Source: Bacteroidales bacterium
Lineage (GTDB): Bacteria > Bacteroidota > Bacteroidia > Bacteroidales > F082
NCBI GenBank assembly: GCA_045628585.1
Contig: JAZQPN010000256.1
Coordinates: 1 to 49,664, forward strand
DNA: 49,664 bases
Reading direction: 5' to 3'
How positions within the stretch are numbered: position 1 is the stretch's first letter; every line of letters begins with the position of its first letter. Shown here one piece after another: positions 8,610-38,876 of this stretch. The position numbers were made by a program, and so were the translations under genes. The notes beneath the pieces were generated by a model. That model searched no databases and was not told the origin of the DNA. It saw only the letters and a list, made by a program, of their open reading frames with translations.

Positions 8610-9929
8610 TTAATTATTTTCTGTAACATTCTTTAAAGTTGGATATATCAGCCACTTTTGGACATCAATATTGAATCCTATGACACGAGCTTCAATTTTT
8701 GCATAAACCTTAATGACATTTTCCCAATCAGGCTTAATATAAGGCGATTTTGGCAAACAATTCAGCGACAATTGGGCATCGGTCTGAATGAATCCGCCTG
8801 CACTTAAAATATCCCTATTGATCACAGCAACAATGACACCAAAATCAAATGACAAATAAAATGGCAATGAAAAAGAATTGGAAAAACAACTTTCCTTTCC
8901 AATATCAAAAAACAAAACCGGGAACTTCGCTCCTAACTTAGCTTCACCAGAAACCATAAGGCCTCCGACGCCAGGAATGGAGAGATAAGGCACTGGAACA
9001 TCAACCGTAACTCCAAAAATGACAATGTCAGCAGACACCTGGGTATGAAGACGTGTTGAAAGACAGTCGTTGCAACACTCACCGTATAGATTAAAGTCTA
9101 AATCAACATTTACCAAATCAGGGTCAATCGGTCGGACAAGTGGCGAGCATTGTTTAACACGTGCCAAAACATCAGTGTATGAGCCCATCAAATCACCCCA
9201 ACGCTTAATCTCGCGTATAGTTTGTGCTGCTTTCTTCAATTCTTTTATTCCTTGGACACAATTCTTTTTTGTATCCGAATTAAACTGTAGACTCAAAGAC
9301 ATTATGTCGATGTTCTCATTAACCACCCAAATTTTGGTCAAATAATCATCACTATTATATACCTTACCATCTTTTTCAATATGGTATGTCACAGTTTCCA
9401 TATCAATACCATTTCGGGAATTTGGAACGGTATGCTGGTCAAGGACAATGTAAGGCTCGTATCCATCGGGCAAGGTCTGGAACACAAAATCACTTTCCGA
9501 AAGCGGATCGCCTGGATGCCAACATTCGCTATTGACTCGGAGTACATTGATAATCGGTTGCTCCAAAACGTGAATGACATAATTGTAACGGACTGTCGAA
9601 TATTTCGACACATTAACGAAGCTAAACAGATAATCACCCGGAGAATAGAATCGGACACTAAGTGTCTGACTATGCACTGTATTATGATCCAAAACAATTT
9701 CAACGTCGCCTAAATACTCCCAACGCATCTGAGAATCCGTGACATGTTGGAAGGAATAGATGTCCTTCTTCATGCAATCGGTTCCACTATATTGGTCGTT
9801 AACCTCAAAAACATAATAGCGGTCCCATTCATAGGTGGTGGTGGCGTTCTGAGTCCATCCCCATTTAAAAGCAAGCAGAGCCAAAGTCATCAGGATGCAT
9901 CTAAAAAATCTGTTCAAAGTATTAGTCAT
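8610..9929 (-). CDS. Orphan secreted protein, 439 aa, no family recognised
   Basis: Intact ORF starting 15 nt after the giant gene stop and ending 8 nt before the next gene. It has an N-terminal hydrophobic signal-like segment (FFRCILMTLALLAFKWGW). The C-terminal half is rich in alternating hydrophobic, beta-like stretches. I recognise no motif. Confidence 0.75.
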   Translation of the reverse strand: MTNTLNRFFRCILMTLALLAFKWGWTQNATTTYEWDRYYVFEVNDQYSGTDCMKKDIYSFQHVTDSQMRWEYLGDVEIVLDHNTVHSQTLSVRFYSPGDYLFSFVNVSKYSTVRYNYVIHVLEQPIINVLRVNSECWHPGDPLSESDFVFQTLPDGYEPYIVLDQHTVPNSRNGIDMETVTYHIEKDGKVYNSDDYLTKIWVVNENIDIMSLSLQFNSDTKKNCVQGIKELKKAAQTIREIKRWGDLMGSYTDVLARVKQCSPLVRPIDPDLVNVDLDFNLYGECCNDCLSTRLHTQVSADIVIFGVTVDVPVPYLSIPGVGGLMVSGEAKLGAKFPVLFFDIGKESCFSNSFSLPFYLSFDFGVIVAVINRDILSAGGFIQTDAQLSLNCLPKSPYIKPDWENVIKVYAKIEARVIGFNIDVQKWLIYPTLKNVTENN

Positions 9930-9944: not shown

Positions 9945-12900
9945 TTAAAACTGCAAAACATTTTTCAAGAATTTATATGCTTCAATTTCGTCGTTCACGT
10001 CGATGCAGAAGAGCATTTCGGCATTGGTGAAGCAGTAAATCGTGATAGTATGACGCACGCCTGGCCGCAAGATGCCGTCGGGTTCGTCTTCGAACTGGTC
10101 GGTCGGAATCTCAAGCACGGTGCGGTGAATGTTGAGTTCGCCACGGCGCAAGCCAATCCACGATTCGCCCAAGCTGCGCAGCTGAATCTTAGGTGCCACT
10201 ATGTCGTTGGTGCCCAAGTTTCCGTATTCGAGCGTCAGGCAGCAGTAACGGTTGGCACGCAAGCCTTCAGGAATGATGAGGTTGGTGGCCAGCAGTTCAG
10301 GCTCACCCTCAACCACCGTGAAACAGTCGTTCAGATAAGTGTATCCGGCGCAATAGTTATAGGCTTCGAGCGAATAGACACCTAACTCGGCGCCCTTCAG
10401 GTTGAAGGTAGCGAACACCTGATTGAAGTTGACATAACGCAAGGTGTCGGCATAAATCGAGATGGTGTCTGTGCCATTTGACTTGAACAGACGTACCGGC
10501 ATGTCATGGCGGAACTTGGAGCCGATGATCTTCACCGTCACATTGCCCGTGTTGCCGCCCTTGTTGGGCGAGATGCTGCGGATTTCGAATGGCAGAATCT
10601 GAGCCTCAACCGTCACTTCCTGGGTCTCGTTCACTGGGCTGAAGCCGTAGAAGCTCACGCCGTAGTAGCCGGCCTCGGTACGTGGAATGAAGAGTTCGGA
10701 ATTGCCTGACATCTGGCCATCGGTTGAGAAGTCGTAGTTGAGGTTGTCGCCAATGTCGTTGTGCAATACATAAATGTTGTTCACGGCACCCATGAGCGAG
10801 TCAGGCGTGACGATGTAAACGCGGGCTGTCTCGCTGATGGCTCCAAGCACCTCGAGCTTAAAGTCCTTATATTCGAGTTTCTTCAACTCGAAGGTCTCAG
10901 GATGGTCGAAATAAAGCACCGGCAATTCCACCTTGAACGGCGACGACGAGCAGCCGATATTGTTGTCCTCGTCCGCTTCATAGAAGGTGTTGCGGGCATC
11001 GGTGATGACGATAATGTAGTAATTGCCTTCATGCAGGCCAGCGATATTGGCCGTGAGGCTATGCGTCTCCGAGGTGACAATAGGCAGGTTCATGTCGTAT
11101 GACACCGAGCCAAGGAGCTTGTCGTTGACATCGAACTGAGTATCAGTCGACAGATAAACCACATCGCTGCAACCGACACCGGTAGCCGTGTTCGGGCCAT
11201 TGTTCTTCACTGTCCAAGTGATGGTGATGTCGTCACCCGACATGATGGTTGTCGGATGTTCGATGCTTTCCACGACCAAATCGACAGGAGGATTCAATGT
11301 CAACACGACAGGAATCATGGTCAGGTTGTTCTCGTAATCCATCTCAAACATTGCCTTTGACTGGTTGGCATAGATGTAGACGGCATAGTTGCCAGACTGC
11401 GGCACCGGCACGACGAATGAAGCCGTGTCGATGTAATAATCGCCTGGTGACAAGGTGTCGGAACGGGTTACATTCGATGCCACGGTACCATTATTAAAGG
11501 TGTTCTTTGAGAATCTGACCTGATCGTTCCAGGTGCCGCAAGTAGGTCCGTCTCCGATGTTGGTCACGCGGTACGAGACGAGAATCGGTTGTCCACAGGC
11601 GGGGAATTCGGTCAGGACCGTCACATCGCTCACCTCTAAGTTCGGGACAGGAATGCTCGAAATGTTGACTTGCAATGCACCCACGTTGTTTTCACTGTTT
11701 TCGTCAGGGTTGGCACTATTCACATCAGTAACGGCCAAGATATAGTAGGCACCCAGTTTGCCATAAGGAATGACAACTTGCACGTTCTCTGTATAACTGC
11801 CGTTACCAGGCAGGACATCATTCTGGATGATCTCGCCAAGCATGATGTCATCGACATCCCACGACGCATCGGTGGAGAGGAATATCTTGTCAGTCCAATG
11901 GCTAATCGTAGAGCGAGTTCCCAAATTGCTGACCGTATAGGATACATTGACACGTTCGTTCCATTCCACTTCATCGTTGCCATTGATATCGGTAACGGCG
12001 AGGTCAAGGCTGTAGGCTGTCAACGGGACAGATGCACTCTGGTAAGTGTTGTTGTATTCACCCACATACTCGAAGATAGCATCGGTTGCATCGGCGATGA
12101 TATAGATATAATAGTTGTCAGCTGGAAGGTTAGCTGGAAGAGTGAACGTTTGGGTAACGGAATAACTGCCACCGATGGCCAACGGCCCGTTCTTAGTAAT
12201 CGAACCAAGCAAGGTGGAAGTCTCCGTATTGAACTGCGGATTGTTGGAGATGTAAACAGCATCCGTCCAGCTTTCCGAAGCCAAAACGTCACGGATTCCC
12301 TGGTTGCCCATTTCGTATGAGACATGAATAGTGCCGCCTGCAACAGCTTCGCTTGACGTAGAAGCGTCGAGGAAATAGAGGTCAGGATAAGGCGACAAGG
12401 TTACGGTCAGCATATCCGAAACGATGTAGTCTGTATTTACATTATCGCCTTCGCAAATGGTCTCACCATCGTTGACATTGACATAGATGTAATACAAGCC
12501 TTCGGCATCAACCGGCAAGGTTGCATATTGCGTAATCTGGATGGTGTCGTTAATGTCAAGGTCGAATGGGAAGGTTTCGAGTTTCAGCCGTTCAGCCGTG
12601 ATAAAGTTCAGCTCAGGCGAAAGGCCAAGATAGAGGCCGAGATCAATCTCGCCATAATACTTCGCACTACCATTGTTTGTCACCTTGTAGGTAACGGCAA
12701 ATGTTTCGCCGGAATTAAGCTGCGCCGGAGCTTCTATGTCGAAGGCCAAGAAGTCAGGATTGCTCAGCAAAATTGTGGAAGAAAGGTTGTTGTTGGTGGC
12801 ATCCTTGTCGTTGTAAGGTGTAACTGTCACCTTGATGGTGTTTTCCTCATAGAAATTGCAAGGAATGCTGATTGGCACCGTACCGGACAAAGTGTCGCCC

Positions 12901-33900: not shown

Positions 33901-36900
33901 TGATATGTCGGAGAAACCAAAGATGCCACACTGACCGCTAACTGAAGATTATCGGTGGCGTTGTCCCACGACGAACCGTCTTTCGACCCAGAACCATTCG
34001 GTTTGACATAGATGATGCCGTTCACATCGGCCACCAGAAGCGTTATTGCGCCGAACTCAGATTCGTAGCAGCCCATATCGACCTTATCGGACTGGATGCG
34101 GTAATTGCCGGCCAAATCGAAATCGGGCAACGTGACATTGCTCGTCGTTCCATGGTCGATGCACGCCGAACCTTCCTGCAAAGTCCAGTCGCCACCCGAA
34201 TAGCTTGCGCCGAAACCTTCTGTTGGGGAAACAAACTTCGGACTCATCGAAGCACCTTCGTTTTCCGAAGCCAATGGCAAATTACCCGTTCCTGCAAAAC
34301 CACCTTCAACGGCATTGTAAGTAGCCGTGACCGTTCCCCTATTGGTAATCTGGTTGGAACCCGAGTCACATTTATTGCCCCAGACAAGGTTATTGGTCAG
34401 TTTCACGCTCGAAGTCGCGCTGCTGTTCACATATATACCGCAACCGGCATTGTTGGCTGCCGAGTTCTGCACAATGGTATTGTTCAGCAACTGCTGGTAA
34501 TTACTGCTGAGATAAATGCCGCCACCTGCGGCTGTCGAACTGTTGTTGCTCACCAAACAGTCGGTCATCTTGGCATATTGGTTCAGATAAGCACCTGCGC
34601 CCGTTCTTCCAGCTGTGTTGTTCTGAATGTAGCAATCCTGAATGTTGGTATAGGAAGAAGACCCGTACACATACATGCCGCCGCCGAAACCATTTGTAGC
34701 ATTATTCCTGAAAACACAGCTTGTAATGTTTGGAACCTGATCGGCATACAGACCACCCGCATACGCGTAATCAGTGGAATACGAATTTTGCGTTTGGTTA
34801 TTGTGAATGTTACAGTTGCTCAGGTTTGCATACGAAGCATAAACGCCGCCGCCATAGGCATAATACGAAGTGCTCAAACTGATGCTGTTGCCGTAGATTT
34901 CGCAATTGTCCAAGGTGCCGTAACTCACATAAACGCCAGCGCCATACGAATTGCCAGCATTGCCCTGAATGACATTATTCCTGATGACACAATTTCTCAA
35001 TGTCGAATATTGCAAGAGATAGGCACCCGCTCCATAACCCGAAGTAAGCTTACCGTTTTCAATGGTGAAGCCATCCCATGTTGCCGTCGTCGAACTTGTA
35101 TAATTAACCGCCTGATACAGTACACGCTGCTGGTTTTGTCCGTCAAGAATAGAAGCATGAGTGGCAAAATCACGCTGGGTCAAGTCGTAATTATAAGGCT
35201 CGTTGCCGGCAAAGCCGCCATACACATTGACACCGGCCTGCATATAGAAAGCATTTTGGCCTGAAGGACCTTCGGTATAGGTGCCTTCCGCCACCCAAAC
35301 CGACGCTTTCGGGTTGCAAGCCGAAGCTGCCGAAATGGCGAGATTAAGATAAGGCGTTGCGTTGTCCCATGATGAGCCGTTTCCAGTGCCGCCATTCTTA
35401 ACGTAAATGATGTTATGCGCATCAGGCGTGATGACATAATTGGAGTTGTACGAGGTTTCGTATGCACCCAAATCGACTGCATCATTCTGAACACGGGAAT
35501 TGCCAGCCAAATCGGTTTCAGGCAATGTGACATTCAAGCCTGTCGTTACACCTTTATTAATTAATATGGAGCCTTCTGTCAAGGTCCAGTCGCCGCCCGA
35601 ATAAGAATTTCCAGCACCTTGAGTTGGAGAAGCGAATTTCGGATGCAGCAAACTGCCCGAATTGGCTGATGCTAGGCTGATGTTTCCAACACCTTGGAAA
35701 CCACCTTCGACAGCCGAATAAGTCACCGTCGCATTGTAGATATTATCTCTCCCGCTGCCGTTCCTGTTGCCCCAAAGCACCGAATTCTGCATATTAAAGG
35801 AGGAACCATTTCCATAAATGCTGCTTCCGGAAGTCGCAGAGACCAAATTGTTCACAATCGTATTGTTGACATACGAAACATACGACGACGACACATAAAC
35901 CGCTCCGCCTTCGCTGCTTGCCATATTGTTGGCCACCAAGCAGTTCGCCACATTGGTGTAACCTGAGTTGTAAAGGCCGCCACCCTGTGAACCCGTGTTA
36001 TTTTCTATCTTACAGTTTATCAGGTTGACATAATTCGATGATTCGCCCGAAGTGCAGATACCGCCACCGCCATTGCTCGTCGTGTTATTTTTCACCACAC
36101 AATTCTCAATTCTTGAACCATAATAGGCATAAATGCCTCCGCCATAGGAATAGGAGGAATAATACGAAGAATTAGCCGTGTTGTCGTGAATATCGCAGTT
36201 GCTGACGGTTCCATATTTCACATAAATGCCACCTCCACTGCCTAAATAACTTGAACTCGAACCTGAATAATTGACAGAATTATTACAGACCTCACAATCT
36301 TCAACCGTGCCATACAAAGCATAGATGCCGCCACCGAAAGCCGAAGAGGAAGCGTTGGCTATCGTATTGTTCTTTACGATACTGTTCCGTAGCGTTCCGC
36401 GATTCTTCAGATTGGCACCAGCACCATAACCAGTGGTAATCCTACCATTTTGAATCGTGAAACCGTCCCATACCGTCGTATGGTTTTCTGCAAAATCATA
36501 AAGTTGTTCGAGGACTCGGCGCGTATTGCTACCGTCAAGCACAGTTGGATGACTGGACACATTGCGCTGGTCGACAGAGGTTTCAGTTCCTGCAAAACCG
36601 CCAAACGCATTCACGCCTTCATACATGAAAAACGCGCTGCGGCCATCGGCCACATTGCCATAATAGGTGCCTTCCCTGAACCAAACCTGAGGCTTGCTCT
36701 GCAACGAGGCGGCAAACACCATCAGCGAGTCGACGGCAGGACATGCGTTCTGCCACGAGCTGCCGTTTTTCAGACCAGCGCCTTGCGGGCTGACATGCAA
36801 TATGTTATCATTTCCAACAACAAGCTGATACATATCGAACTGCCACACGGGGCTTTCCGTCTCGCCGGCACTGTTGCGTTCCTTAATCTGCCAGTAATAA

Positions 36901-38876
36901 GTCTTATTGGTCGGCAAAATGGCCGAATAGGTTTCCGCAACGTCCGAAGTCCAGTCGACGGCCACCGTGGTAGGCGGATTGGTCTCCCCTATCAGCAACT
37001 GATATTCCAGAGTGAAATCGCCCAACGACCAGCCTAAGTAGCAACGGCTGTCGCCATTGTAGAAGCTGCAGTTTTCCGATGGCTGAGGGCGGTCGGCAGC
37101 AACAGGTTCCGACATTGAGGTGACATCGACCGAAACGGTAAAGCCTTGCATAGTGGACGAAGCCACCAGATAGTAGGTGCCCTGTTCCACAAACACATCA
37201 CAGATTTGATAAGGCGAACGGAGCTGTTCCTCAAAAAACACGATGTCATCAATAAAGAAGCCGTCGTCATTGCTATTCACAGAACCATCCTTGTGATATT
37301 GCCATTTGAAAGTATGCGAACCGCGCGTAACCGGATATTCATATTTGATCCAGCTGCCGTTTCCGCTGATACCATCAATCTTAGCCGTGCCATCAAGATA
37401 GAAATAACCTTTGTCGTAGTTCGATTCCGATGAAACGCGGGCATAAAAACTCATCAAGCCGTTGGACGGAATGTCCATGGTGATTTCAATATAACAGTCA
37501 GAACCTGAAACGCCACGGTTTCCCGGAGCCAAGCAGTAGTTGCCCTGATGCGGGCTTATCGTCGAACGTGTCCAAGGGCGTGAGGCATCATTTGACCATT
37601 CAAAGGATTCGAAGATTTCCTGATCTTCAAAGTTACATTCCCAATTGCCCAACTGACCGAATCCCAAATAGTTGTTGCCTGCCATCGGGCCGCCTTCGCC
37701 TTCAAAGCCTTCACGGTAAAGTGCCATTTTCGGATCATCGCCCGAAACGACACCAGCCTTCATGACAACATCTTCATCGAAAGTCATCTTATAGACTGCA
37801 TCATAGCCATCAGACTTGCTGCCTGGCAATTTGTAGTCATTATGCAGGTTAACGGAACGGTCGATGGTCTCATAAAAAGGAAATTCTGTGATTTCCTGAG
37901 CCAGTTCCCACACATCAGGACTGACTGGCGTGTAGGCCGTAGCTGTCATTGGCGTTGTAAGGCTTTGGCCATCTGCATAACTGATAATCAAGTCGCCCGT
38001 CATCTCGCCCGTTCCAGTTCCCGACGAAACCGAAAAATCAAACGAATCATTAATGTCCAATTCTTTTGGCAAATCCAAGCCGTTGATAACGAAAAAGTCA
38101 TTACTTACCTGATAGGAATTGACCGTAGTTGCCGAACCGACATTCTGTAATGTGACATCGACCGGCTCCATCCAGCAGCCCGATGGACGTTCTCCCAAAT
38201 CGATTGCGGCAGGTTCTAAAGCAATAATCGGAACCAATGGCATGACACTGAATTTCATATTGTTACGATAACTGCAAACCGAACCATCGAATGGACTTGA
38301 CGGAGTGGAATTGTCGGAATCGCTGTACTGGAAAATGGATCTGGCCGAAGAAACGGCATGGGTATAGAACTTTTCTCCGTTATTGTCGTATGAACCTGTA
38401 TTATCATCGACAGCCACCACAAGATTGTCCGTACCGTTGTAAAGGAACGGCGTAGCAAGCTCAATGTCAACCCAATAGCCATCGAAGCTGTTCTTAAAAC
38501 TCACATTGCCCGTGAAGACCTGGGTCAAGCTGGAAGCAGGCACATAATCATTACCATTGGCGAAGCTCGACTTTTCAGTCACACCCATATAAATGGTGAT
38601 TTTTCGGGTTCGTGTGGTGCCATTGTAATACTGGAACGCAATATGCGTGATGTTACACGCATTTTCCATTGCAAATTCGTCAGCACCAATGATTTGCTGC
38701 GTATATGAATATTTGTAATAGGTATTTGTCGGCAATACGTTACCATTGGTATAGCCCGTCCCCGACCCGATTGTGTATTCCAACGCATCCCTATTCATTC
38801 CTTTTTGGCAGAAAGCCGAATTCCCCAAAACGACAGCCATTACCGCCAGCACCATATATCTCATTATCAACCTCAT
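9945..38876 (-). CDS. Giant secreted surface protein, 9,643 aa: head + 16 parallel beta-helix modules + Fn3 + 9 CARDB-like + PPC/TIG-like tail
   Basis: Single uninterrupted 28,932-nt ORF with signal peptide MRLIMRYMVLAVMAVVLGNSAFC. I checked the reading frame at 18 landmark motifs spread along the gene (residue D690, the 16 module C-cap codons and residue C7870). All are in phase. See the sub-features for domains. Confidence 0.93.
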   Translation of the reverse strand: MRLIMRYMVLAVMAVVLGNSAFCQKGMNRDALEYTIGSGTGYTNGNVLPTNTYYKYSYTQQIIGADEFAMENACNITHIAFQYYNGTTRTRKITIYMGVTEKSSFANGNDYVPASSLTQVFTGNVSFKNSFDGYWVDIELATPFLYNGTDNLVVAVDDNTGSYDNNGEKFYTHAVSSARSIFQYSDSDNSTPSSPFDGSVCSYRNNMKFSVMPLVPIIALEPAAIDLGERPSGCWMEPVDVTLQNVGSATTVNSYQVSNDFFVINGLDLPKELDINDSFDFSVSSGTGTGEMTGDLIISYADGQSLTTPMTATAYTPVSPDVWELAQEITEFPFYETIDRSVNLHNDYKLPGSKSDGYDAVYKMTFDEDVVMKAGVVSGDDPKMALYREGFEGEGGPMAGNNYLGFGQLGNWECNFEDQEIFESFEWSNDASRPWTRSTISPHQGNYCLAPGNRGVSGSDCYIEITMDIPSNGLMSFYARVSSESNYDKGYFYLDGTAKIDGISGNGSWIKYEYPVTRGSHTFKWQYHKDGSVNSNDDGFFIDDIVFFEEQLRSPYQICDVFVEQGTYYLVASSTMQGFTVSVDVTSMSEPVAADRPQPSENCSFYNGDSRCYLGWSLGDFTLEYQLLIGETNPPTTVAVDWTSDVAETYSAILPTNKTYYWQIKERNSAGETESPVWQFDMYQLVVGNDNILHVSPQGAGLKNGSSWQNACPAVDSLMVFAASLQSKPQVWFREGTYYGNVADGRSAFFMYEGVNAFGGFAGTETSVDQRNVSSHPTVLDGSNTRRVLEQLYDFAENHTTVWDGFTIQNGRITTGYGAGANLKNRGTLRNSIVKNNTIANASSSAFGGGIYALYGTVEDCEVCNNSVNYSGSSSSYLGSGGGIYVKYGTVSNCDIHDNTANSSYYSSYSYGGGIYAYYGSRIENCVVKNNTTSNGGGGICTSGESSNYVNLINCKIENNTGSQGGGLYNSGYTNVANCLVANNMASSEGGAVYVSSSYVSYVNNTIVNNLVSATSGSSIYGNGSSFNMQNSVLWGNRNGSGRDNIYNATVTYSAVEGGFQGVGNISLASANSGSLLHPKFASPTQGAGNSYSGGDWTLTEGSILINKGVTTGLNVTLPETDLAGNSRVQNDAVDLGAYETSYNSNYVITPDAHNIIYVKNGGTGNGSSWDNATPYLNLAISAASACNPKASVWVAEGTYTEGPSGQNAFYMQAGVNVYGGFAGNEPYNYDLTQRDFATHASILDGQNQQRVLYQAVNYTSSTTATWDGFTIENGKLTSGYGAGAYLLQYSTLRNCVIRNNVIQGNAGNSYGAGVYVSYGTLDNCEIYGNSISLSTSYYAYGGGVYASYANLSNCNIHNNQTQNSYSTDYAYAGGLYADQVPNITSCVFRNNATNGFGGGMYVYGSSSYTNIQDCYIQNNTAGRTGAGAYLNQYAKMTDCLVSNNSSTAAGGGIYLSSNYQQLLNNTIVQNSAANNAGCGIYVNSSATSSVKLTNNLVWGNKCDSGSNQITNRGTVTATYNAVEGGFAGTGNLPLASENEGASMSPKFVSPTEGFGASYSGGDWTLQEGSACIDHGTTSNVTLPDFDLAGNYRIQSDKVDMGCYESEFGAITLLVADVNGIIYVKPNGSGSKDGSSWDNATDNLQLAVSVASLVSPTYQVWVAGGTYVGNGERNDNAFTMESGVKVYGGFAGNEPADYDKSQRDFAANASILDGQNVQRVLYQGTSSSAALWDGFTIERGRLYYGYGAGAYLYYGTLNNCIIRNDTILGNNSNYDNSYGGGVYCKYGNMQNCEIYGNYVKQTSSNSVYGGGVYLQYGNMFQCNIHDNATNSSYSYSYAYAGGVYAQYNSSVLNCVIEDNTTNGYGGGLYVEGNSTSSRAVVTNTTVRGNSAYNYGGAYITYTSMTNGFVSNNTATNNYGGLYAYYYNNVVSCIVNNNTALCYGGLGVYYYNNFVCCDILCNLTTTTSTSSSYNSAGIYSNGNSNVLTNSIVWGNRKNSASSRIYGSGLTVSYSAIEGGYSGTGNITLSGSNTGDDVHPCFAGPTEGAGAEFTGGDWNLAEGSACINVGNNGANLMPDFDIAGNERIQDGQVDMGAYESNLSQTPITPDAHNIIYVVSGGAGTKDGSSWENAAASINSVVNKAAVLNPVPVVWVAGGVYYGDSIAGNNAFRMQPCVNVFGGFAGNEPYDYDKSLRDLENNATILDGQRVQRVLYQGSAYNQATASTWDGFTIQNGRIASGYGAGAYLLAYGSLKNCVVRNDSIVTSGSASGGAGVFAGINSTLENCEIYGNYVQLTGSSYARGGGAYSEGASILGCNIHDNVAKNASSSSYAQGAGIYHSGSNTFVLRDCSVVGNITSGRGGGIYVSSSSSYAMLTNDRFEGNYATYGGGGIYADSYTKTVNCVVANNSAPDSGAGIYANGSYNYVYNSTIVNNYINSTTYSYAGAGVYSGNTTFVMANCVVWGNVKNSDVNNVSVNSSASVTFCGVQGGLNGIGNISLSDDNEGNDYSPKFVSPSEDVGYNYSGGDWSLQSGSVCINKGTQSGLNITMPQTDIAGNERVQQGEIDFGAYESPYSSTMILPDEHNIIYVTQDGAGNKDGSSWDNATPYINMALSAASSINPKPEIWVAAGTYVGDSIAANSAFIMTQGVNVFGGFAGNEPYDYDKSSRDFETNATILDGQNVQRVLYQGAAFTTSTAWDGFVIEKGRLTVSDNYGAGAYLQKNGILRNCVVRYDTVMYNSTAYGGGVYMIYGTLENCEIYGNYAKYSGTSYSYSYGGGVYSEYGTLIGCYIHDNSLAAYYSGYNRGGGVYAKYATSLEHCHVDYNMAAYGAGVYADGSGSYVTMNDCVIERNQGSSSGAGVYSDYANLTNCIINNNYINYSNSNGGGLLLANYSTLTNCDVVNNKIYTGNGGGVYVSGNYNYMYNTVIWGNKIGSSSNSISGSSITVSYCAVEGGWNGTGNIQLSGQNEGSGQCPMFVAPTEGAGNSYSGGDWRVQEGSALINNGRTLGITLPEYDIAGNDRVKDDRIDIGAYESDFTSIQIVADEHNIIYVKQGGAGLKDGSSWENACDDINFALTAGTTMSPKPSVWVAGGHYVGDSIAGNNAFRMQPGINVYGGFAGNEAYDYDLTLRDFRTNASVLDGQNVQRVLYQGATYSDTIAWDGFTITNGRLSSGYGAGAYILKGGTLRNCVICNDSIVGTNVSYGNSYGGGVYMSYGMLENCDIYGNAVMSKRTSSHSNSYDGGGVYAEYATLVNCNIYENYAKGYSSSYGYGGGAYLMYTSSMYGCSVFDNTAHAYGGGLYANGNGNYVVVEDCSVTGNTVNQHQGGGIYAQYVRMTNCEISCNKVFNGEGGGIYSNGYMYLTDCLINNNTSNSYGGGVYMSNYTYLTNCNVVNNLVSSSSYYGGGVYVASGSCYMQNSVVWGNKRNTSDNNVSYNSSTPTISYSAIQGGWNGTGNIALDAANTGVDLSPAFVAPSEGAGATYSGGSWLLQQGSVLINKGVEEGLYSTLPETDLAGNSRVQQGRVDMGCYESEYNSSYEIHCDEHNIIYVTVEGAGLKDGSSWENASGNLNFAISEASAMNPVPVIWVKEGTYTGIPGASAFVMQPGVSVYGGFAGDESYDFDLTARNLEENQTILDGQNRQRVLEQKASYSAAKAVVWDGFVLERGYVGGGYGAGAYLLGNSTLRNSIVRNDTIRGSVYGAGIYASSAVVEDCEIYGNYGTYTSSTAIQGGGIYSSGSIIRNCFIHDNALRGHSTSNGEGGGIYCASNTKSVIENCVVVRNTVSSNGGGIYLYGSSSNYSELINCRIENNTAYEGGGIGGTYYFNVIGCNIANNTATYNGGGVSVSGNCTFVNTNIVNNLCTNTSSNVGSGIYLGSNGTRKLTNCIIWGNKKNQTSDQYYFGGTPTVTYCAIQGGYDGTGNITLSAENEGGELHPCFNNPTEDAGAEFSDGDWTLSMASVCINQGTINGVTLPETDLAGNERIQQGAIDMGAFESPYNAVVLAPDANHILYVTTTGAGNADGSSWENATSYLQLAVNRAGTFEPKATVWVAQGTYVGNGVAGGNAFTIPSGITVYGGFAGTEPYDYDLSQRDLVNHASVLDGQGVQRVLYQRTDFTAENAAVWDGFTITNGVGNVGGAGAYLQANAELRNCLIYGNENTGSNNGGGAYLYGSSSGNAKLTNCKVYDNNGGNGGGIYANSYAVMTNCLITDNNARYSGGGVWTGSSVTMSQCGVYDNTAANNGAGVYANSTGNVMQNSVVWGNTVGENRSAIYNHGNIDVRYSAIEGGMFGIGNVSLAAENTGNVMSPCFTSPDNADWTLQSNSFLINKGAVLETLPEQDLAGNSRVQQGNPDCGPYESAYETTFDIVPDANNIVYVKLDGNGNGSSWANAAGDLQMAVNRAAAVQPAAQVWVACGTYYGNQSLSSAFNMVAGVNVYGGFAGTESADFDLDNRDFITNVTVLDGNNAQRVLYQKYAFTETTAATWDGFTIRNGYVNGNGAGVYMQAYAHLKNCIITDNATAGSGTVGGGVYSTGLSAAYNTITNCEIRNNQSVYEGGGIRMEYTTLTNSIVNGNTSTSSSGGGIYSYYSKTINCLVSNNSSYNYGGGIYNYYSHVINTTIVNNNARNNGGGIYSNTSSSYTLANLIVWGNKVGESFNQYYSGSFTYSAIQGSQPSGTGNINLAAENDGDEVSKNYVRFLAPDFGIYQLQNESSLVGRGNNSVTGLPEKDLAGRDRIIDGSIEPGAYEQYCTQFRYMDLNVEAGSPYDFYGSFITEPGVYMHQWAYAADCDSLVIANVSMNSAIWYVTENGAGNKDGSSWANASDNLINTMNQAGMATGYGSKQIWVAEGTYAGNASGVSFPMMGGLKVFGGFAGNETSLAERDLENHQSILQGASNQYFTSSSSSNPCVEGSTGSWDGFTMRIGRQIQLNAYTELQNCLIEIPVSMSGASLENCEFANVSASNLVAVSATNASIRNCTFHNVNTNRNVVSASNSTIIGCEFDGNATSNSSYPMFSIAGGSVDSCSFHHNNAAGLLVKLSDAALTYGLIYNNTGKYNSSSSELTGSIISASNDALVSHCTVVNNRSNYSGTISPSCYVNMEDGSNNCFMQPKYTTIALQNAILENSIVWGNAQNVFENNIIAKNLASEINYCAIQNNVYNGIGNIALSQVNEDNVFAPYFNAPSSTAGHLNLDVDLDWSLTDASICLKQGSEGCDLGAIASDADAVLTLNPTDGVIYVSADSNNPNGDGSSWSNATPYLQYAVSRANTFTPAAQVWVSEGDYVGDGINTNNAFSMMEGVDVYGGFAGTETSLAERNIELHVSVLDGQNVQRVLYQNEPFATETAWDGFAIRNGFMSETDFYAYNSSIIKNPVSTNSDWMLNQVHGAGAAIMENGVLRNVDFGNNNIARDASVATNASNLTKGTALSMLGGVLDSVSITNDSTVYVSTANSAINSYLFAINGEIRNSNFNHNIGKIMLWGTRVENTVFENNQVCWELPETDNVNEAQLFANASTFVNCKFARNNAVAVSKSGSGTVYGNIYQNCLFVNNNAVAIRNHTSQDNDTFTNCNIIGNKSQNTAAVPVSGGIFNNTVVWGNRDYLDMPAHFSSSNLNSSYVFNHCAVELGLEGYPDIISLASSNTGTSEAYAYPYFLAPDADDYELCDASCLINAGDNSVVTAEHDYLGQDRMADGIVDIGAYEYKCMHYYEYSDVTQASAYPFCGEWLTESGQYIHRFWLEDKDCDSVVVLNLHFKRIIYVTETGSGLKNGTSWENAYGTLYEAMEASGQNTDDLTQIWVAQGLYRGDGTSVNAFRIFPNVQLYGGFVGNELADYDITQRDYENHVTTLDGDYIQRVIYMVEDATEETAPIIDGFTIKNGFSRANVSQGTAMFLKQYVHVRNCNITENYTMSGVGAVYIQAEDINNCDVKKILNTFENCKFTRNQGTYAVHSSNTSFTNCSFENNDRRGVEIVTYTKFDNCTFTANKGRAVWLIPAFKKFQNEWKETYTIDYMDMTNCVLTNNGGGIAYKIRTCGGHGEGNIMSTVIVSNTTTDVENYTMGQDGFIKHNYQKGGAIFGDESTPINIVCSTILNNCAQKDGGGLYGSSFHLTNTILSGNKAGSKSNQLSNYYCEFTLCEEELISMISIETYDMKYCAIEGGYPGEGNITLNNKFRLDLSGYTPDTLSACVNQGTTEGVTVPEYDIYGNSRVRQGRIDIGAVESNLEGQVLMAADANDIMYVSPEGSGTMNGSSWENATPYLQMAQNFALTMNPKPQIWVKEGTYLDDNPHFWSGYAMMPGVNVYGGFAGNEPASYNLDDRDLNNHLSILDGQNKKRILEQIDDFNAENTVVWDGFIMRNGYARKGYTDNIIALTESEVDSYFGSYMNGGAAIMKTGGTFRNCNIYSNNATKGGGIYKTSNGGLASNIFNCKISQNFATEEGGGIYSNMPSGYFNGTTPVDTIANCEINDNKSDRHGALRTNRTLVLNTSIIHNTTDLYAFDTLTSGHQYNRFVNCVLWGNSSRNYAFQTEGSLNTYDYCAIQGGGPAEGSGEGLINLAQENTGDDPSVNYPNFLDPDNYTYRPLENSSFINLGDNSHVFGSYDLAFKNRIKDDVVDMGAYEETCINYVHRDVVVSESYDFYGQLLTESGDYSHQWTPEGAECDSLVSLHLDIRHIYYVTPTGSGTKDGRSWENAMDNIQTAINRACNDVAEYGPGQVWVAAGTYAGNGTSSQAFQLKPNVNIYGGFHGNEVMNVNLDARDFSVDSTVLTGSHCQRVVGNYGNESSFSQVNKAVIDGFVIRDGYSTGNGGGVYVKNFVTVQNCKIYNNQGGKGAGVYADNRSEITQCDIYSNTALSDGGGAYCSSSTLTYCHIHNNLCDNTSAANQQRRGAGIFGRNATINNCLIANNSALTDNSFGGGMYIDNSTVQSQLLNCTMVNNFSYNLGGGVYSVNSGSNNEFINCVLWGNKTLLNTQQVAVSASNVPIYMRYCAVQGGCAGIGNINLTAANTGSSIFAPQFISPSENVGANYGGGDWHFADGSILANHGERMTYTLTHDLDSLSNARLKNDRIDIGAYESNFVNGYHAEPDAHNIIYVNVNNHGGDMSGDSWENAIPDLQLAINFAGDDDNHPKVWIAGGTYTSNGWPYVDAFVALNGIDLYGGFAGNETYDYDLDERDLVAHQTILDGQNIQRTLHQAHSTFFKYKQIEELHSAIYDGLTIRNGFVYKNDGGGVRMQKGDLRNCIVENCHALSGSNGGGGIVKAASNVTVSNSIIRNCKAEDCYYGGGGSYGNITFNNCLLANNSAIVCRSNTSGGGAAYSGTFVNSTIVNNYSDVNGGGLAGSYTVKNSIVWGNKVGNNLPCNLFTARTTAENVFADSDVTYSAIEGGMSGIGNITLNGENEGSDDVNYPMFAEPSIAAGSDYQGGDWTLMEGSVCIGHGNNAYVNGEYDLSHNPRVRQYTVDMGAYESPYDQDFEITPDANNIIYVTQNGAGDMNGSSWADATPYLQYALDHASLMSPKPVIWVAAGSYHGDGTPQFPAFILPKGVSIYGSFAGDEPATYDLALRDFETNTSFLDGHNLQQIMRHDESNGNNYDYIDGFVFQNGRSNRSGGAANLVKCYVDNCKFYNNTCVDEGSLSISGGALNISGCKVYHSEFVGNYSMIDGGAIKESGSIISHCLIKGNRADRNGGGIMGGNELYDCEISSNSAVKGGGAYNVNKMRNCTVVKNTADITSGGDSKNGGGIYNLGGSDAFGGTLYNTVTNNVIWGNKTGALVSNIRGTTPNAGTLTYNAIERDEVMPSGTGNIVIESANDGTDATLNYARFTNPDDGDFRLLENSMCIDVGSNDYAAPGDYDLDGNERIRGGFIDMGAYEQTPINCKVPTNLQVPEELLTYTTADVTWTPGGDETQWLVYYARSNGSDVQTVAVDTNYIQLQNLHPNLGYFVKVRSMCGGDEMSSYCVPKYFNTLCDPDSIVWTNYLVEEGLVPLQDQTLESNSHIYFSWDYIDGAESYDLYLWRTDHGNGLPIPDFPVAYGLTRNYTTVDLYQSNYQGYGVYDHCPGWGCDPEPPVYLRQVDPYETAYYAWKVVAHKQCATIESDTMYFNTALPDLHVTSMDHSFAQTGQVMTVEWTVKNDGVGPTPVGEEWNDYIVLSYPVNWERVSFTDTPAESFLMASVPNLMALNPGEQYTNSVNITVPDDMYGSVFLFVLSNWKPYSGMSLDFTPYGGVFPNPYNPPYIPHDPGDPEGYMEGSCSPESFEEIHGCDNFFYQYIDVAIPPIPDLVARNVISPYDHQAGDSITISWNLINQGGAAFEPTLVTDVVYMTMDSVFNTNAIQIGTFADTIAMGINDTITRVARFITDERKFGDYNFFVRTDSRNQVYESLFEYNNMSLVSEHSCHIVPPPTPDLIIDSLVVGSHPVADTLAPNAVYPVYFRVTNVGLEPCKVLPGSTGTVDTCGTIPPFRGKAWNDKLYFSQIDTFNVAHSTLITSFTNDTILYLPDMLIAIDTLVRQWAECHYAIPDTLSEHASHNDSIRYQNAVAQAEREKQNYLTRQLKKYIGNYHRQGFAYVPENAVEGWYYFYAKTDSEDAIFEYGCNDNNVAKDSVYVVQPDLKMLSVEISEDRSHINYKAVNVGSGDFIDCRRFMVTANFNNAQVGDTVLTHVNLPVGDTLSGTVPISIPCNFYEENTIKVTVTPYNDKDATNNNLSSTILLSNPDFLAFDIEAPAQLNSGETFAVTYKVTNNGSAKYYGEIDLGLYLGLSPELNFITAERLKLETFPFDLDINDTIQITQYATLPVDAEGLYYIYVNVNDGETICEGDNVNTDYIVSDMLTVTLSPYPDLYFLDASTSSEAVAGGTIHVSYEMGNQGIRDVLASESWTDAVYISNNPQFNTETSTLLGSITKNGPLAIGGSYSVTQTFTLPANLPADNYYIYIIADATDAIFEYVGEYNNTYQSASVPLTAYSLDLAVTDINGNDEVEWNERVNVSYTVSNLGTRSTISHWTDKIFLSTDASWDVDDIMLGEIIQNDVLPGNGSYTENVQVVIPYGKLGAYYILAVTDVNSANPDENSENNVGALQVNISSIPVPNLEVSDVTVLTEFPACGQPILVSYRVTNIGDGPTCGTWNDQVRFSKNTFNNGTVASNVTRSDTLSPGDYYIDTASFVVPVPQSGNYAVYIYANQSKAMFEMDYENNLTMIPVVLTLNPPVDLVVESIEHPTTIMSGDDITITWTVKNNGPNTATGVGCSDVVYLSTDTQFDVNDKLLGSVSYDMNLPIVTSETHSLTANIAGLHEGNYYIIVITDARNTFYEADEDNNIGCSSSPFKVELPVLYFDHPETFELKKLEYKDFKLEVLGAISETARVYIVTPDSLMGAVNNIYVLHNDIGDNLNYDFSTDGQMSGNSELFIPRTEAGYYGVSFYGFSPVNETQEVTVEAQILPFEIRSISPNKGGNTGNVTVKIIGSKFRHDMPVRLFKSNGTDTISIYADTLRYVNFNQVFATFNLKGAELGVYSLEAYNYCAGYTYLNDCFTVVEGEPELLATNLIIPEGLRANRYCCLTLEYGNLGTNDIVAPKIQLRSLGESWIGLRRGELNIHRTVLEIPTDQFEDEPDGILRPGVRHTITIYCFTNAEMLFCIDVNDEIEAYKFLKNVLQF
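10305..10919 (-). other. PPC-like beta-sandwich (10596-10919) followed by an IPT/TIG-like Ig domain (10305-10595)
   Basis: PPC-like: FELKKLEYKDFKLEVLG..ARVYIVTPD..NIYVLHND..GYYGVSFYGF. TIG-like: PFEIRSISPNKGGNTGNVTVKIIGSKFRHDMPVRLF..ATFNLKGAELGVYSLEAYN. Calls are by motif only. Confidence 0.5.
10920..14585 (-). repeat. Array of 9 CARDB-like domains
   Basis: Nine units open with PDL/PNL/VDL..(V/I)....(G/S)..(I/V).(V/I).(Y/W).V.N.G (for example PDLHVTSMDHSFAQTGQVMTVEWTVKNDGVGPT and VDLVVESIEHPTTIMSGDDITITWTVKNNGPNTA). Most close with a ..(F/Y)E....(E/D)NN tail (AIFEYVGEYNN, MFEMDYENN, FYEADEDNN). Unit 3 carries a ~65-aa insertion (about 13200-13397). Confidence 0.75.
15006..15269 (-). other. 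Fibronectin type III-like domain directly after the last beta-helix module
   Basis: CKVPTNLQVPEELLTYTTADVTWTPGGDETQWLVYYARSNGSDVQTVAVDTNYIQLQNLHPNLGYFVKVRSMCGG. A second, longer Fn3-like stretch follows at about 14586-15005. Confidence 0.7.
15285..36809 (-). repeat. 16 tandem, individually capped right-handed parallel beta-helix modules (aa 690-7864)
   Basis: Modules are delimited by the recurring C-cap LPE.D(L/I)AGN.R....(V/I)D.GA(Y/F)E. The lowest coordinate of each Glu codon is 35457, 34062, 32586, 31167, 29778, 28284, 26892, 25803, 24636, 23220 (degenerate GAIA), 21786, 20232, 19035, 17673, 16500 and 15285, all in phase. Module lengths are 451, 465, 492, 473, 463, 498, 464, 363, 389, 472, 478, 518, 399, 454, 391 and 405 aa. 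Each opens with ..IIYV..GAG.KDGSSWENA...L..A......VWVA.GTY.G...AF.M..GV.VYGGFAGNE.YDYD...RD......ILDGQN.QRVLYQ....WDGF.I.NG. The core is ~22-25-aa coils of the form N(C/N).(I/V)..N.A...GGG(I/V)Y. Confidence 0.85.
36810..38804 (-). other. N-terminal head region (aa 25-689): several non-repeated beta-sandwich-type domains
   Basis: aa ~30-215 is an unassigned domain (YYKYSYTQQIIGADEF..ITIYMGVT..WVDIELATPFLYNGTDNLVVAV). aa ~220-315 is Ig-like. aa ~410-550 is a MAM / choice-of-anchor-J-like jelly roll (NWECNFED..W..SNDASRPW..SPHQGNYCL..MSFYARVSSE..GYFYLDG..SWIKYEYPV..GSHTFKWQYHKD..FFIDDIVF). aa ~600-685 is Fn3-like. Calls are by motif only. Confidence 0.45.
38805..38876 (-). other. Sec signal peptide of the giant protein
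   Basis: MRLIMRYMVLAVMAVVLGNSAFCQ has a basic n-region, a hydrophobic core and an A-F-C/Q small-residue cleavage context. Confidence 0.7.

Follow-up and report, generated by a model that had tools for sequence, protein, structure and literature searches.

[quoted passage not shown] No domain that would sort or anchor the giant itself could be recognised in it. It belongs to an uncharacterised family of Bacteroidota that is defined here, the 'CARDB stalk + PPC/TIG/terminal unit' family. Its members end in the C-terminal unit and have, downstream on the same strand, a gene for a partner of the RHS and/or DUF7619 kind, and both features are found for the giant.

Integrity of the giant gene

The giant gene is a single uninterrupted ORF (9945..38876, −) with an ATG start and a single terminal stop, TAA, directly behind which lies a further stop in frame (TAA TGA). 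The predicted product has a mass of 1,039 kDa and a pI of 4.4. A sequence-only reading had described a single gene for a ~1-MDa modular protein, and its coordinates and length proved exact, with collinear homologues in addition.

Short-read assemblies often break or mis-join repetitive giant genes, other assemblies of the giant's locus end at the giant gene, and one relative, L011, is interrupted by a stop codon. These points would favour a faulty assembly or a non-functional, decaying pseudogene, an explanation so improbable as to be negligible when set against the remaining data. The chance probability of an open frame of 9,643 codons is ~1e-201, and 10 of 12 relatives retain an open frame of 3,700 aa or more. 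The β-helix modules share just 25–57% pairwise protein identity, and no DNA repeat >100 nt exceeds ~75% identity; hence, the repeats are too diverged for mis-joining. In independent assemblies, homologues match the giant as single collinear segments at residues 218–4581 (P0088, 60% identity), 3034–9626 (P0090, 51% identity), 3799–9641 (P0089) and 5426–9641 (P0101), so that collinearity extends across residues 218–9641. Thus, a chimera or collapse of the ORF was ruled out by the diverged repeats together with the collinear homologues.

Domain architecture

The order of domains proposed earlier (signal peptide, head, 16 β-helix modules, Fn3, nine CARDB-like units, PPC-like and TIG-like domains) was correct, and one extra terminal domain of ~110 aa, absent from that list, is added here. 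Residues 1–23 (38808..38876, −; MRLIMRYMVLAVMAVVLGNSAFC, followed by Q) form a signal-like N-terminus, read by eye, with a probable signal peptidase I site that would leave Gln at +1. The same Gln+1 pattern recurs in six neighbouring exported proteins.

The head (aa 24–684; 36825..38807, −) has 74 homologues, the coverage of which was mapped. It includes a widespread N-terminal module of ~180 aa (aa ~30–210), Ig-like domains, a jelly-roll-like domain (aa ~415–550) and an Fn3-like domain, and no Pfam, NCBIfam or PDB sequence match was obtained over its ~660 aa. The first ~355 aa align to P0019, a standalone head-only T9SS cargo (E=7e-34), which carries a Cleaved_Adhesin domain at the position equivalent to the jelly-roll-like domain. 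Pfam did not detect Cleaved_Adhesin in the giant head, and its assignment there is positional only.

The head is followed by an array of 16 capped right-handed β-helix modules of 362–517 aa each (aa 685–7866; 15279..36824, −). Their coordinates, all on the − strand, are 35439–36824 (M01), 34038–35438 (M02), 32565–34037 (M03), 31146–32564 (M04), 29757–31145 (M05), 28260–29756 (M06), 26871–28259 (M07), 25785–26870 (M08), 24492–25784 (M09), 23196–24491 (M10), 21645–23195 (M11), 20208–21644 (M12), 18897–20207 (M13), 17649–18896 (M14), 16476–17648 (M15) and 15279–16475 (M16). A local HMM found 16 N-caps with the motif ..IIYV..G.G..DGSSW.NA..VWVA.GTY.., and the C-cap motif is ..D.AGN.R....D.GAYE, degenerate in M10. 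The coil motif GGG(I/V)Y pointed out earlier is indeed abundant in M01–M09 and M14–M16, but nearly absent in M10–M11 (0–1 copies).

The assignment of the modules to right-handed β-helices of the choice-of-anchor-Q kind was confirmed by family models and predicted structure. Sampled modules scored 40.9 and 42 bits with Pfam Beta_helix PF13229 (cut-off 25.9). The module C-cap matches NCBIfam choice_anch_Q NF041518 (cut-off 25 bits) at 36.1, 32.9 and 25.1 bits in M01, M05 and M12, respectively; M08 falls just under the cut-off at 24.7 bits, and M10 gave no match. The AF2 model of M05 is a β-helix (pLDDT 83.8, pTM 0.85), and Foldseek related it with probability 1.00 to Pel9A, LnbX and a rhamnogalacturonan lyase (pectate-lyase fold), and also matched it to the adhesins PfbA and Rhombotarget A and to phage tailspikes. 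Positions conserved across the 16 modules are those of the caps and an Asn/Gly ladder, and coil number varies via insertions and deletions. This pattern suggests that the modules are structural rather than catalytic.

The stalk begins with an Fn3 domain (aa 7868–7955; 15012..15275, −; Pfam fn3 E=6e-8, 33.2 bits against a cut-off of 25). A second, Fn3-like β-sandwich region (aa 7956–8097; 14586..15011, −) is conserved in P0089–P0092 and gave no family match. The nine CARDB-like units (aa 8098–9320; 10917..14585, −) were recognised by a local HMM and BLAST self-comparison, and unit 3 has a helical insert of ~100 aa. Pfam CARDB was above cut-off in three chunks of the giant, and the Fn3/CARDB/Ig-like stalk deduced previously is further supported by Foldseek.

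The C-terminal unit consists of three domains. A PPC-like β-sandwich (aa 9321–9439; 10560..10916, −) comes first; it is conserved in the alignment and its region was modelled by AF2 at pLDDT 84, and the Pfam PPC match is weak in the giant (E=0.13; 6.5e-4 in the homologue L026). The IPT/TIG-like domain (aa 9440–9533; 10278..10559, −) is under the Pfam TIG cut-off (E=0.0097). Thus, of the PPC-like and TIG-like domains named in the sequence-only reading, both are weak by sequence and the latter is backed by its fold, since Foldseek matched it to the IPT/TIG domain of EBF3 (TM 0.45–0.49). The terminal β-sandwich of ~110 aa with a C-terminal helix (aa 9534–9643; 9948..10277, −), as seen in the AF2 model, carries the conserved motif ..ILRPG....I.IYCFTN.., which is the family-defining end; the last 113 aa gave no family match at E<=5. 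The model of the last 370 aa shows consecutive Ig-like/TIG sandwiches and a helix (pLDDT 84.2), and a profile of the unit matches the giant at aa 9190–9631 of 9,643 with E=1.4e-189. No T9SS sorting domain was detected on the C-terminus of the giant at E<=0.01 (TIGR04183/PF18962, TIGR04131, NF033708).

The five-gene cassette

The giant opens a compact cassette, in which it is followed by gene X, a TSP3 protein, a 1,598-aa DUF7619 protein and a 749-aa T9SS cargo, with intergenic gaps of 8–19 nt. The short gaps and the lack of an excess of terminator-like sites suggest an operon, with the reservation that sigma-70-type promoter and terminator scans are uninformative for a Bacteroidota genome. The sequence TATCTTTG (38924..38931, −), 48 nt upstream of the ATG, matches the Bacteroides −7 promoter consensus TAnnTTTG. 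The window contains 20 copies of this motif, against 30 expected, and hence no excess; the copy in question is intergenic and correctly oriented, and the narrow gaps further down the cassette have none. It may be regarded as a candidate promoter of the giant, though a weak lead.

Gene X (8610..9929, −; 439 aa) starts 15 nt past the stop of the giant and encodes an exported, fast-evolving protein with no known Pfam or NCBIfam domain. It is syntenic in relatives, yet only 25–27% identical there, and the sole match in a homology search was a 99% identical copy. The possibility that X is one of the known outer-membrane partners, such as PorP/SprF, was rejected, as it matched no family. The 444-aa product of the next gene (7267..8601, −) has thrombospondin type 3 repeats, which are calcium-binding (Pfam TSP_3 E=2.5e-39), and is without a sorting tail; it is syntenic and 51–52% identical in relatives, and identical copies occur in two other assemblies.

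The partner (2451..7247, −; 1,598 aa) carries Cys-motif repeats and a T9SS type A tail (aa 1522–1597; 2457–2684, −). Its DUF7619-containing region (aa 549–1100; 3948–5603, −) has a homologous counterpart in the RHS/YD partners of other Bacteroidota. A PDB sequence search with the DUF7619 region found nothing. The last gene (189..2438, −; 749 aa) is syntenic in relatives and has a weak type A tail. Type A tails are thus found on three neighbours of the giant (2451–7247, 39096–41051 and, weakly, 189–2438), which points to the presence of a T9SS in the source genome; no T9SS core gene lies within the window. No window protein matched RHS_repeat, and scans of the cassette revealed neither polysaccharide-utilisation genes nor any toxin or immunity domain.

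Many loci of the family have a single stop between same-frame ORFs, an observation that raised the idea that programmed stop-codon readthrough fuses the stalk protein with the product of the following gene. The idea was rejected: same-frame pairs account for 30 of 80 (38%, against 33% by chance), 64 of the 80 stops are TAA, and the stop in the window is a tandem TAA TGA.

Relatives of the giant

A search with the module profile matched 188,264 proteins. The best 150 of these are all multi-module proteins of 1,480–7,792 aa with 4–27 matched stretches, and 25 among these 150 share the β-helix modules, CARDB stalk and C-terminal unit (4,000–6,800 aa). Hence, the earlier view that one unit is normal and a 16-fold array unusual did not hold, and tandem arrays of these modules are common, not exceptional. 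With 16 modules the giant nevertheless exceeds the 25 representatives sharing its C-terminal unit (11 at most) and is the longest seen here; compared with P0090, it has about five extra modules.

The close relatives (61–72% identity) are all Bacteroidales MAGs from the gut of horse, yak, sheep and roe deer, and in 10 of 12 the frame is open through the 10 kb examined upstream. Full-length relatives of 4,200–7,173 aa are present in several sources. Among other multi-module giants, 22 of 62 have T9SS tails, and, in keeping with the name of the family, related multi-module proteins end in varied anchors (T9SS types A, B and C, dockerin-type and others).

Against the suggestion of an undescribed system, the same architecture is already in the databases, where the relatives carry the routine NCBI name "right-handed parallel beta-helix repeat-containing protein". 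As to experimental studies, a literature search found no papers on 'choice-of-anchor Q' and none on the family of the giant. Taken alone, it is another of the giant surface proteins of bacteria, from a family already in public databases under a generic name. The family is thus sequenced but unstudied, and what appears new is its genomic context, i.e. a tail-less stalk with a tailed partner, and the fusions described below.

Linkage and fusion to the DUF7619 partner

At all 74 of the 74 loci across Bacteroidota that have enough downstream DNA, the C-terminal-unit protein is followed on the same strand by an RHS and/or DUF7619 partner; this partner often includes an RHS/YD shell and usually bears a T9SS type A tail. 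Such tails were found on 21 of the 33 partner ends sampled, all those from Bacteroidales included. In most other Bacteroidota lineages the partner consists of DUF6531, 13 RHS repeats, DUF7619 and a T9SS tail; RHS repeats occur in the partners at Chitinophagaceae and Saprospiraceae loci, and cultured Chitinophagaceae have a simpler two-gene version of stalk and partner.

In P0126 and L086, which represent two diverged lineages, the β-helix modules, CARDB stalk, C-terminal unit, DUF7619 region and type A tail are joined in one uninterrupted ORF each. The two fusions are 73% identical and come from different metagenomes, and they would constitute Rosetta-stone evidence linking the family of the giant with the DUF7619 partner. 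A comparable order is seen in teneurin-like bacterial proteins, which have CARDB/Ig repeats ahead of a YD shell in a single chain (PMC6425310). In the 150 best representatives, a search for further fusions and for homologues of X and the TSP3 protein found the P0126 fusion only. The lack of a tail on the giant, the five-gene cassette, and the linkage and fusion to a T9SS-tailed DUF7619/RHS protein had all been missed in the sequence-only reading.

Proposed organisation and export of the fibre

The host is probably a relative of Candidatus Limimorpha among the Bacteroidales of herbivore guts. The long surface fibre or adhesin suggested earlier is the most reasonable function for the giant. The C-terminal unit, with its PPC-like, TIG-like and terminal β-sandwich domains, would form the base of the fibre, and eleven β-sandwich domains (nine CARDB-like, one Fn3 and one Fn3-like) would form the stalk. 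Beyond these would lie the sixteen capped β-helix modules, separated by linkers of ~15 aa, and the ~660-aa head of β-sandwich and jelly-roll domains would serve as the adhesive tip. At 4.8 Å per coil and ~4 nm per Ig-like domain, the extended fibre would measure roughly 150–180 nm.

The cargo of T9SS can be folded and very large, as in the case of the 6,497-aa SprB, and is understood to need a sorting tail (PMC9251779). This requirement counts against the passage of a tail-less 1-MDa giant across the outer membrane. The giant may reach and stay on the surface with the tailed DUF7619 partner, through its C-terminal unit. We know of no T9SS cargo that is exported as the passenger of a tailed protein, and a literature search for tail-less T9SS passengers found none. 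Further observations count against the partnership. In the window, the genes for X and the TSP3 protein separate the giant from the tailed partner, the fused form is found in two related sequences only, and the partner in the window has lost the RHS repeats found in most other lineages; given the last of these, the partnership may differ between clades.

A wider generalisation is possible but doubtful. A two-part system throughout Bacteroidota would export and/or anchor a tail-less stalk via a DUF7619 partner (often an RHS/YD shell) that binds the PPC/TIG/terminal unit. It would amount to a passenger-style type IX secretion, kin to teneurin-like proteins, and the gut version of the fibre would be lengthened by up to 16 modules. 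The proposed system spans lineages from Chitinophagales and Saprospirales to gut Bacteroidales.

The giant costs ~29 kb of a small gut genome, and for this reason it probably matters for attaching these abundant rumen and hindgut Bacteroidales to plant particles or other cells. The missing tail, the invariable tailed partner and the fusions make a testable hypothesis of how tail-less giants reach the surface of Bacteroidota, and it is testable genetically, as cultured Chitinophagaceae have the two-gene version.

Alternative explanations

Surface display could also be achieved if the C-terminal unit represented a T9SS sorting signal of a new class that has so far escaped recognition. In that case the giant would be an ordinary T9SS cargo, with the partner unneeded for export, and the linkage to the DUF7619 protein would stem only from a function that the two share once secreted. 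The unit is conserved, always lies at the extreme C-terminus of its proteins, and was found in Bacteroidota only, apart from one contig labelled Bordetella, which is probably mis-binned; moreover, several classes of T9SS tail exist (types A, B and C in NCBIfam), and a second unrecognised tail type is present on partner proteins. However, the type A, B and C models gave no match, and hhalign of the terminal domain against type A tails gave a probability of 0.8%, as compared with 100% for the positive control. Foldseek yielded generic Ig-like matches only, and a diverged type A tail was rejected on these last two grounds. In the fused proteins, furthermore, the unit lies inside the chain, which ends in a canonical type A tail; this tail would be redundant if the unit were itself a sorting signal. 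A sorting role for the unit is thus unlikely.

Two further alternatives concern function rather than export, and both are less probable still. In one, the giant would be a multi-catalytic carbohydrate-active enzyme, with modules that act as lyases or glycosidases on plant cell-wall polymers and a stalk that holds the array. The relatives inhabit herbivore guts, and the best structural matches of M05 are LnbX (a lacto-N-biosidase), Pel9A, rhamnogalacturonan lyase, GH87 and fucoidan lyase. These matches have low TM-scores (0.3–0.4), however, and β-helices in the PDB are mostly enzymatic. No catalytic family was recognised, only generic Beta_helix and the choice-of-anchor Q cap; the coils of the 16 modules show no conserved acidic/basic constellation, coil number is variable, and the cassette is devoid of polysaccharide-utilisation genes. 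An enzyme array is therefore improbable, though some individual modules may be catalytic, the top Foldseek matches of the model being enzymes. In the other alternative, slightly less probable again, the fibre would serve as the stalk in a teneurin-like system or one for contact-dependent delivery of toxins and present a YD-shell/RHS partner that delivers an encapsulated effector. The DUF6531, RHS, DUF7619 and T9SS-tailed partner of most Bacteroidota lineages would suit this role, and in teneurin-like bacterial YD-shell proteins CARDB-containing β-sandwich and Ig repeats precede the YD/RHS shell (PMC6425310), an order mirrored by the adjacent, collinear CARDB stalk and RHS/YD genes of most Bacteroidota loci. 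Unlike in those proteins, stalk and partner are separate genes, and the partner is without RHS repeats in the window and in all Bacteroidales relatives. Where a shell is present, it is followed by DUF7619 and the sorting tail rather than by a recognised toxin domain, so that the partner ends in that tail and not in an encapsulated toxin domain, and the cassette has neither toxin nor immunity domain. A surface fibre that works with the tailed partner is the preferred explanation.

Comparison with known surface proteins

Like SprB, the gliding adhesin of Flavobacterium johnsoniae, the giant would be a repetitive, Sec-exported surface filament of Bacteroidota linked to type IX secretion. SprB itself bears a type B sorting domain and depends on the PorP-like SprF, the gene of which lies close by. 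The giant, in contrast, has no TIGR04131 match and no SprF-like neighbour (X and the TSP3 protein are without a PorP/SprF match), is built of β-helix and CARDB units rather than SprB repeats, and lies in a cassette without motility genes.

The resemblance to chlamydial Pmps proposed earlier, i.e. β-helical surface adhesins with short Gly-rich, Asn-containing coil motifs (GGA(I/L/V), FxxN), holds at the motif level but not at that of the family model. PF02415 Chlam_PMP reached 20.2 bits against a cut-off of 20.6 in M01 only, and none of the window chunks yielded TIGR01376. As type V autotransporters, Pmps combine one passenger helix with a C-terminal β-barrel, whereas the helix of the giant is split into 16 separately capped modules and a Pfam scan of its C-terminal 684 aa gave CARDB and DUF11 only, with no autotransporter β-barrel. 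PfbA (4mr0) and Rhombotarget A (9cdu, 9cdv), the fold of which is matched by the module, have a single β-helix and their own anchor (LPXTG or GlyGly-CTERM), unlike the giant with its 16 modules and no recognised anchor.

The nearest counterparts are Bacteroidales giants of the same family, namely MBQ2906448.1 (P0089, 6,363 aa), the P0090 cluster (6,743–6,755 aa), and MBR6848179.1 with MBR6848180.1. They share the capped modules, Fn3, CARDB stalk and C-terminal unit, and the head is present in P0090 and P0088. They are collinear with the giant at 48–60% identity and are followed by the same downstream cassette.

The giant gene and its close relatives

The giant protein is encoded by one open frame on the minus strand, from an ATG at 38876 to 9945, and its translation of 9,643 aa contains a single stop, at the terminus. 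The coordinates 9945-38876 and the size reported in the sequence-only reading were thus exact (ORF list, translation). In the DNA, the frame is closed by tandem in-frame stops, TAA TGA (window 9942-9947 (-)), and the next gene, X, starts 15 nt past the giant's stop in the same frame. The product, rich in Gly, Asn and Ser, has a mass of 1,039 kDa and a pI of 4.4. The probability of so long a frame arising by chance is ~1e-201.

The possibility of an assembly chimera, also raised in that reading, was checked. The 16 modules of the giant share 25–57% identity with each other, and DNA repeats >100 nt in the gene are identical at or below ~75%, hence an assembler would find nothing that could be collapsed or mis-joined. 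Independent database homologues each align to the giant in one collinear segment, namely P0088 to residues 218-4581 (60% identity), P0090 to residues 3034-9626 (51% identity), P0089 to residues 3799-9641 and P0101 to residues 5426-9641, and the two halves covered in this way overlap. Other assemblies of the same organism include an identical thrombospondin type 3 repeat (TSP3) protein and the cassette described below; their contigs stop short of the giant gene, which is the usual fate of such genes. The giant is a real, very large gene and not an artefact.

All relatives sharing 61–72% identity over the C-terminal 370 aa come from MAGs of Bacteroidales. These were obtained from horse faeces, yak abomasum, sheep reticulum and roe deer colon, and Candidatus Limimorpha equi is among them. 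In 10 of 12 relatives the frame is open across the entire 10 kb upstream, and each of these genes therefore encodes at least 3,700 aa. The orthologue in the sheep-reticulum MAG (L011) is split by one in-frame stop at 6590-6592 into ORFs of 5,253 and 1,485 aa (MBR6848179.1 and MBR6848180.1). Other members of its 90% cluster are intact (6,743–6,755 aa), and the stop reflects a nonsense variant or else an error of sequencing.

Domain organisation

Domain searches and models agreed with the anatomy proposed earlier for the giant. The N-terminus looks Sec-type, with a putative signal peptide, MRLIMRYMVLAVMAVVLGNSAFC, followed by QKG with Gln at +1 (read from sequence). Seven exported proteins of the window, the giant included, have Gln at +1 after the predicted signal peptidase I site (genes at 189-2438, 2451-7247, 7267-8601, 8610-9929, 9945-38876, 41163-42146 and 43009-45810), a pattern known for substrates of this peptidase as the Bacteroidetes 'Q-rule'.

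The head (aa 24-684) gave no sequence match in Pfam, NCBIfam or the PDB. Its first ~355 aa align to P0019 (E=7e-34), a standalone cargo of type IX secretion (T9SS) that has a Cleaved_Adhesin domain where the giant has a jelly-roll-like domain, followed by Fn3 and a type A tail. From this alignment and the position of Cleaved_Adhesin, the head looks like an adhesive unit, which other proteins would display directly and the giant at the end of a fibre. The first domain of the head (aa ~30-210, window 38247-38789 (-)) is widespread and belongs to no Pfam family. This module has the pattern ..LP....Y.YSY.QQI....E......I..I.F.Y.....R...IY.G.T....F........ and at least 74 proteins of Bacteroidota and Cloacimonadota carry it, in 1–3 tandem copies that often sit right behind the signal peptide.

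The 16 beta-helix modules (M01-M16) occupy aa 685-7866, directly after the head. A local HMM found exactly 16 N-caps (..IIYV..G.G..DGSSW.NA....VWVA.GTY..), and the number of coils between these and the C-caps (..D.AGN.R....D.GAYE) varies. Sampled modules scored above cut-off for Pfam Beta_helix and NCBIfam choice_anch_Q, the latter spanning the C-cap. The AlphaFold2 model of M05, built with the 16 modules as alignment, is all-beta (pLDDT 83.8, pTM 0.85) and was matched by Foldseek to the pectate-lyase fold, including LnbX, Pel9A, rhamnogalacturonan lyase, tailspikes and the adhesins PfbA and Rhombotarget A. Since the conserved positions of the modules are those of the caps and of the Asn/Gly ladder, and the number of coils is variable, a role as spacer or binding surface would fit better than that of an enzyme. 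M01-M09 and M14-M16 are rich in the GGG(I/V)Y motif, which is nearly absent from M10-M11.

A Cys-bracketed motif, C..Y.F.G..lTE(S/P)G.Y.h.W......CDS.V.l.l, is inserted behind M09, M11 and M13 (24477-24629, 21627-21779 and 18882-19028, all (-)). It recurs in many copies in the 1,598-aa partner protein (several within 2451-7247 (-)), and P0094, P0098, P0126 and L086 have it in their tails; Pfam reported no family for it.

The modules are followed by Fn3 (E=6e-8) and then by another region that is Fn3-like, and the stalk includes nine CARDB-like units. The third of these is broken by a helical insert (..HASHNDSIRYQNAVAQAEREKQNYLTRQLKKYIG.., aa ~8500-8560, window ~13197-13379 (-)) shared with P0089 and P0090. 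In the AF2 model (pLDDT 84.2), the C-terminal unit (aa 9321-9643) consists of three beta-sandwiches and closes with a helix. Its PPC assignment is weakly supported (E=0.13), and that of TIG is under cut-off by sequence, with a model resembling EBF3 IPT/TIG (TM 0.45–0.49). Foldseek returned generic Ig-like matches alone for the unit. No T9SS type A, B or C tail was matched on the giant in Pfam or NCBIfam, and its last 113 aa gave no family match even at E<=5. Profile-profile comparison of its end with type A tails gave a probability of 0.8%, as compared with 100% for the positive control. The giant is without a recognisable sorting or anchor domain.

Linkage to a T9SS-tailed partner

The giant heads a cassette of five same-strand genes in operon-like packing, with intergenic gaps of 8–19 nt, that is syntenic in all Bacteroidales relatives. 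It is followed by X (439 aa; 8610-9929 (-)), the TSP3 gene (7267-8601 (-)), the gene for the DUF7619-containing partner (1,598 aa; 2451-7247 (-)), which carries a T9SS type A tail, and a gene for a protein of 749 aa whose type A tail is weak. X belongs to no family and is fast-evolving, sharing 25–27% identity with syntenic genes (51–52% for TSP3 and 37–47% for the partner); only one copy, 99% identical, was found among 5.8 billion proteins.

When 185,579 species genomes were scanned for the C-terminal unit, 80 loci were recovered, and the partner is present in all 74 that have at least 3 kb of downstream DNA. Outside Bacteroidales (Chitinophagaceae, Saprospiraceae and Lewinellaceae), the giant's homologue is a CARDB-repeat protein of ~2,600 to >3,700 aa without beta-helix modules. 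The gene immediately after it encodes a ~1,900-aa protein with DUF6531, 13 RHS repeats, DUF7619 and a T9SS tail, which has a ~290-aa region in common with the partner in the window (44% identity). Pseudoflavitalea rhizosphaerae KACC 18655 (L026) and Flavisolibacter longurius BT320 (L071) are cultured bacteria with this two-gene version. A type A tail was found on 21 of 33 sampled partner ends, including all those from Bacteroidales. Nine of the 33 end instead in a conserved, unrecognised sequence of ~110 aa, ..TWEGT.S..WENPANWSCNSLPD.NTDVII..GK.NYP..NSN..IRTL...PGATG.VN.GFTLTI.K, seen at L028, L031 (partner ORF 11104-16911), L035-L037, L039 and other Chitinophagaceae loci, which could represent another sorting-domain class.

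In P0126 (6,120 aa), the C-terminal unit is internal and is followed by a DUF7619 region (41% identity to the partner in the window, E=2e-113) and by Cys-motif repeats, with a tail of T9SS type A at the end. P0126 is a singleton; a scan of JGI metagenomes with its junction recovered L086, which is 73% identical and is arranged in the same way. Its single ORF, of at least 3,648 aa and without interruption, encodes modules followed by 9 CARDB units, the C-terminal unit, a DUF7619 region (E=5e-111) and a type A tail. Sequences so diverged cannot share one sequencing error, hence the fusion is real. Stop-codon readthrough as a source of fused products was rejected: gene pairs are in the same frame in 38% of cases, against 33% by chance, the stops are mostly TAA, and those in the window are in tandem. 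Single-chain bacterial teneurin-like proteins also have CARDB/Ig repeats ahead of a YD shell (PMC6425310). Taken with this layout, the fusions argue, as Rosetta-stone evidence, for a stalk protein and a tail-bearing partner that act as one unit on the T9SS route.

Predicted function

The giant is predicted to be a T9SS-associated surface adhesin with a tail-less design. It would be displayed on the cell surface with the head at the distal tip of the fibre and the C-terminal unit forming the base, where the T9SS-anchored partner would hold it; X and the calcium-binding TSP3 protein may serve as accessories. [quoted passage not shown] The main weakness of this explanation is the passage of a tail-less protein across the outer membrane when stalk and partner are split. 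The protein could travel with the partner, or the C-terminal unit could act as an unrecognised signal.

The coil motif had been likened to that of chlamydial Pmp proteins, and membership of that family fails, as the repeat match is under cut-off and a C-terminal scan revealed no autotransporter-type anchor. A SprB-type adhesin was rejected, with no type B tail on the giant and no SprF-like gene in the cassette. RHS membership likewise fails in this window.

Distribution of the architecture

Among 1.84 billion representative proteins, a profile built from the 16 modules matched 188,264 at E<=1e-3, and 33,506 when the limit was set to E<=1e-30. Of the 188,264, the best 150 are all multi-module proteins (1,480–7,792 aa, 4–27 matched stretches), and 25 of these 150 end in a giant-type C-terminal unit, with 2–11 modules. 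Hence tandem arrays are common and the architecture is already in databases, for example as 'right-handed parallel beta-helix repeat-containing protein [Bacteroidales bacterium]' (MBQ2906448.1); one cluster of 6,743–6,755-aa proteins is found on many contigs of NCBI, ENA, JGI and Logan. The suggestion that a 16-fold concatenation is unusual was therefore not borne out, and searches of the literature found no study of proteins with this architecture. With 16 modules, about five more than P0090, the giant is the largest of the proteins examined. Rather than an architectural oddity, it is the biggest member seen so far in a Bacteroidota family that has been sequenced and is uncharacterised. The interest of the family lies in the tail-less design and the obligate genetic coupling to a T9SS-tailed partner, natural fusions included. 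Among 62 other multi-module giants sampled, the tails are T9SS type A (18), type C (3) and type B (1), besides dockerin-type and others; this variety is the sense of 'choice-of-anchor'.

Other features of the locus

A ~110-aa domain, ..LE(I/V)GAF....FRLYDH.., is common to three T9SS-tailed proteins of the locus (40659-40988, 2019-2303 and 3015-3344, all (-); 32–39% identity). The 651-aa and 749-aa proteins have it in N-terminal position, the 1,598-aa partner internally. The domain has no family match and could be a common docking module.

Two more intergenic, correctly oriented TAnnTTTG matches, at 41067-41074 (-) and 42214-42221 (+), lie just upstream of the gene for the 651-aa T9SS cargo and rsmG, which suggests that these two genes are transcription units separate from the giant's cassette.
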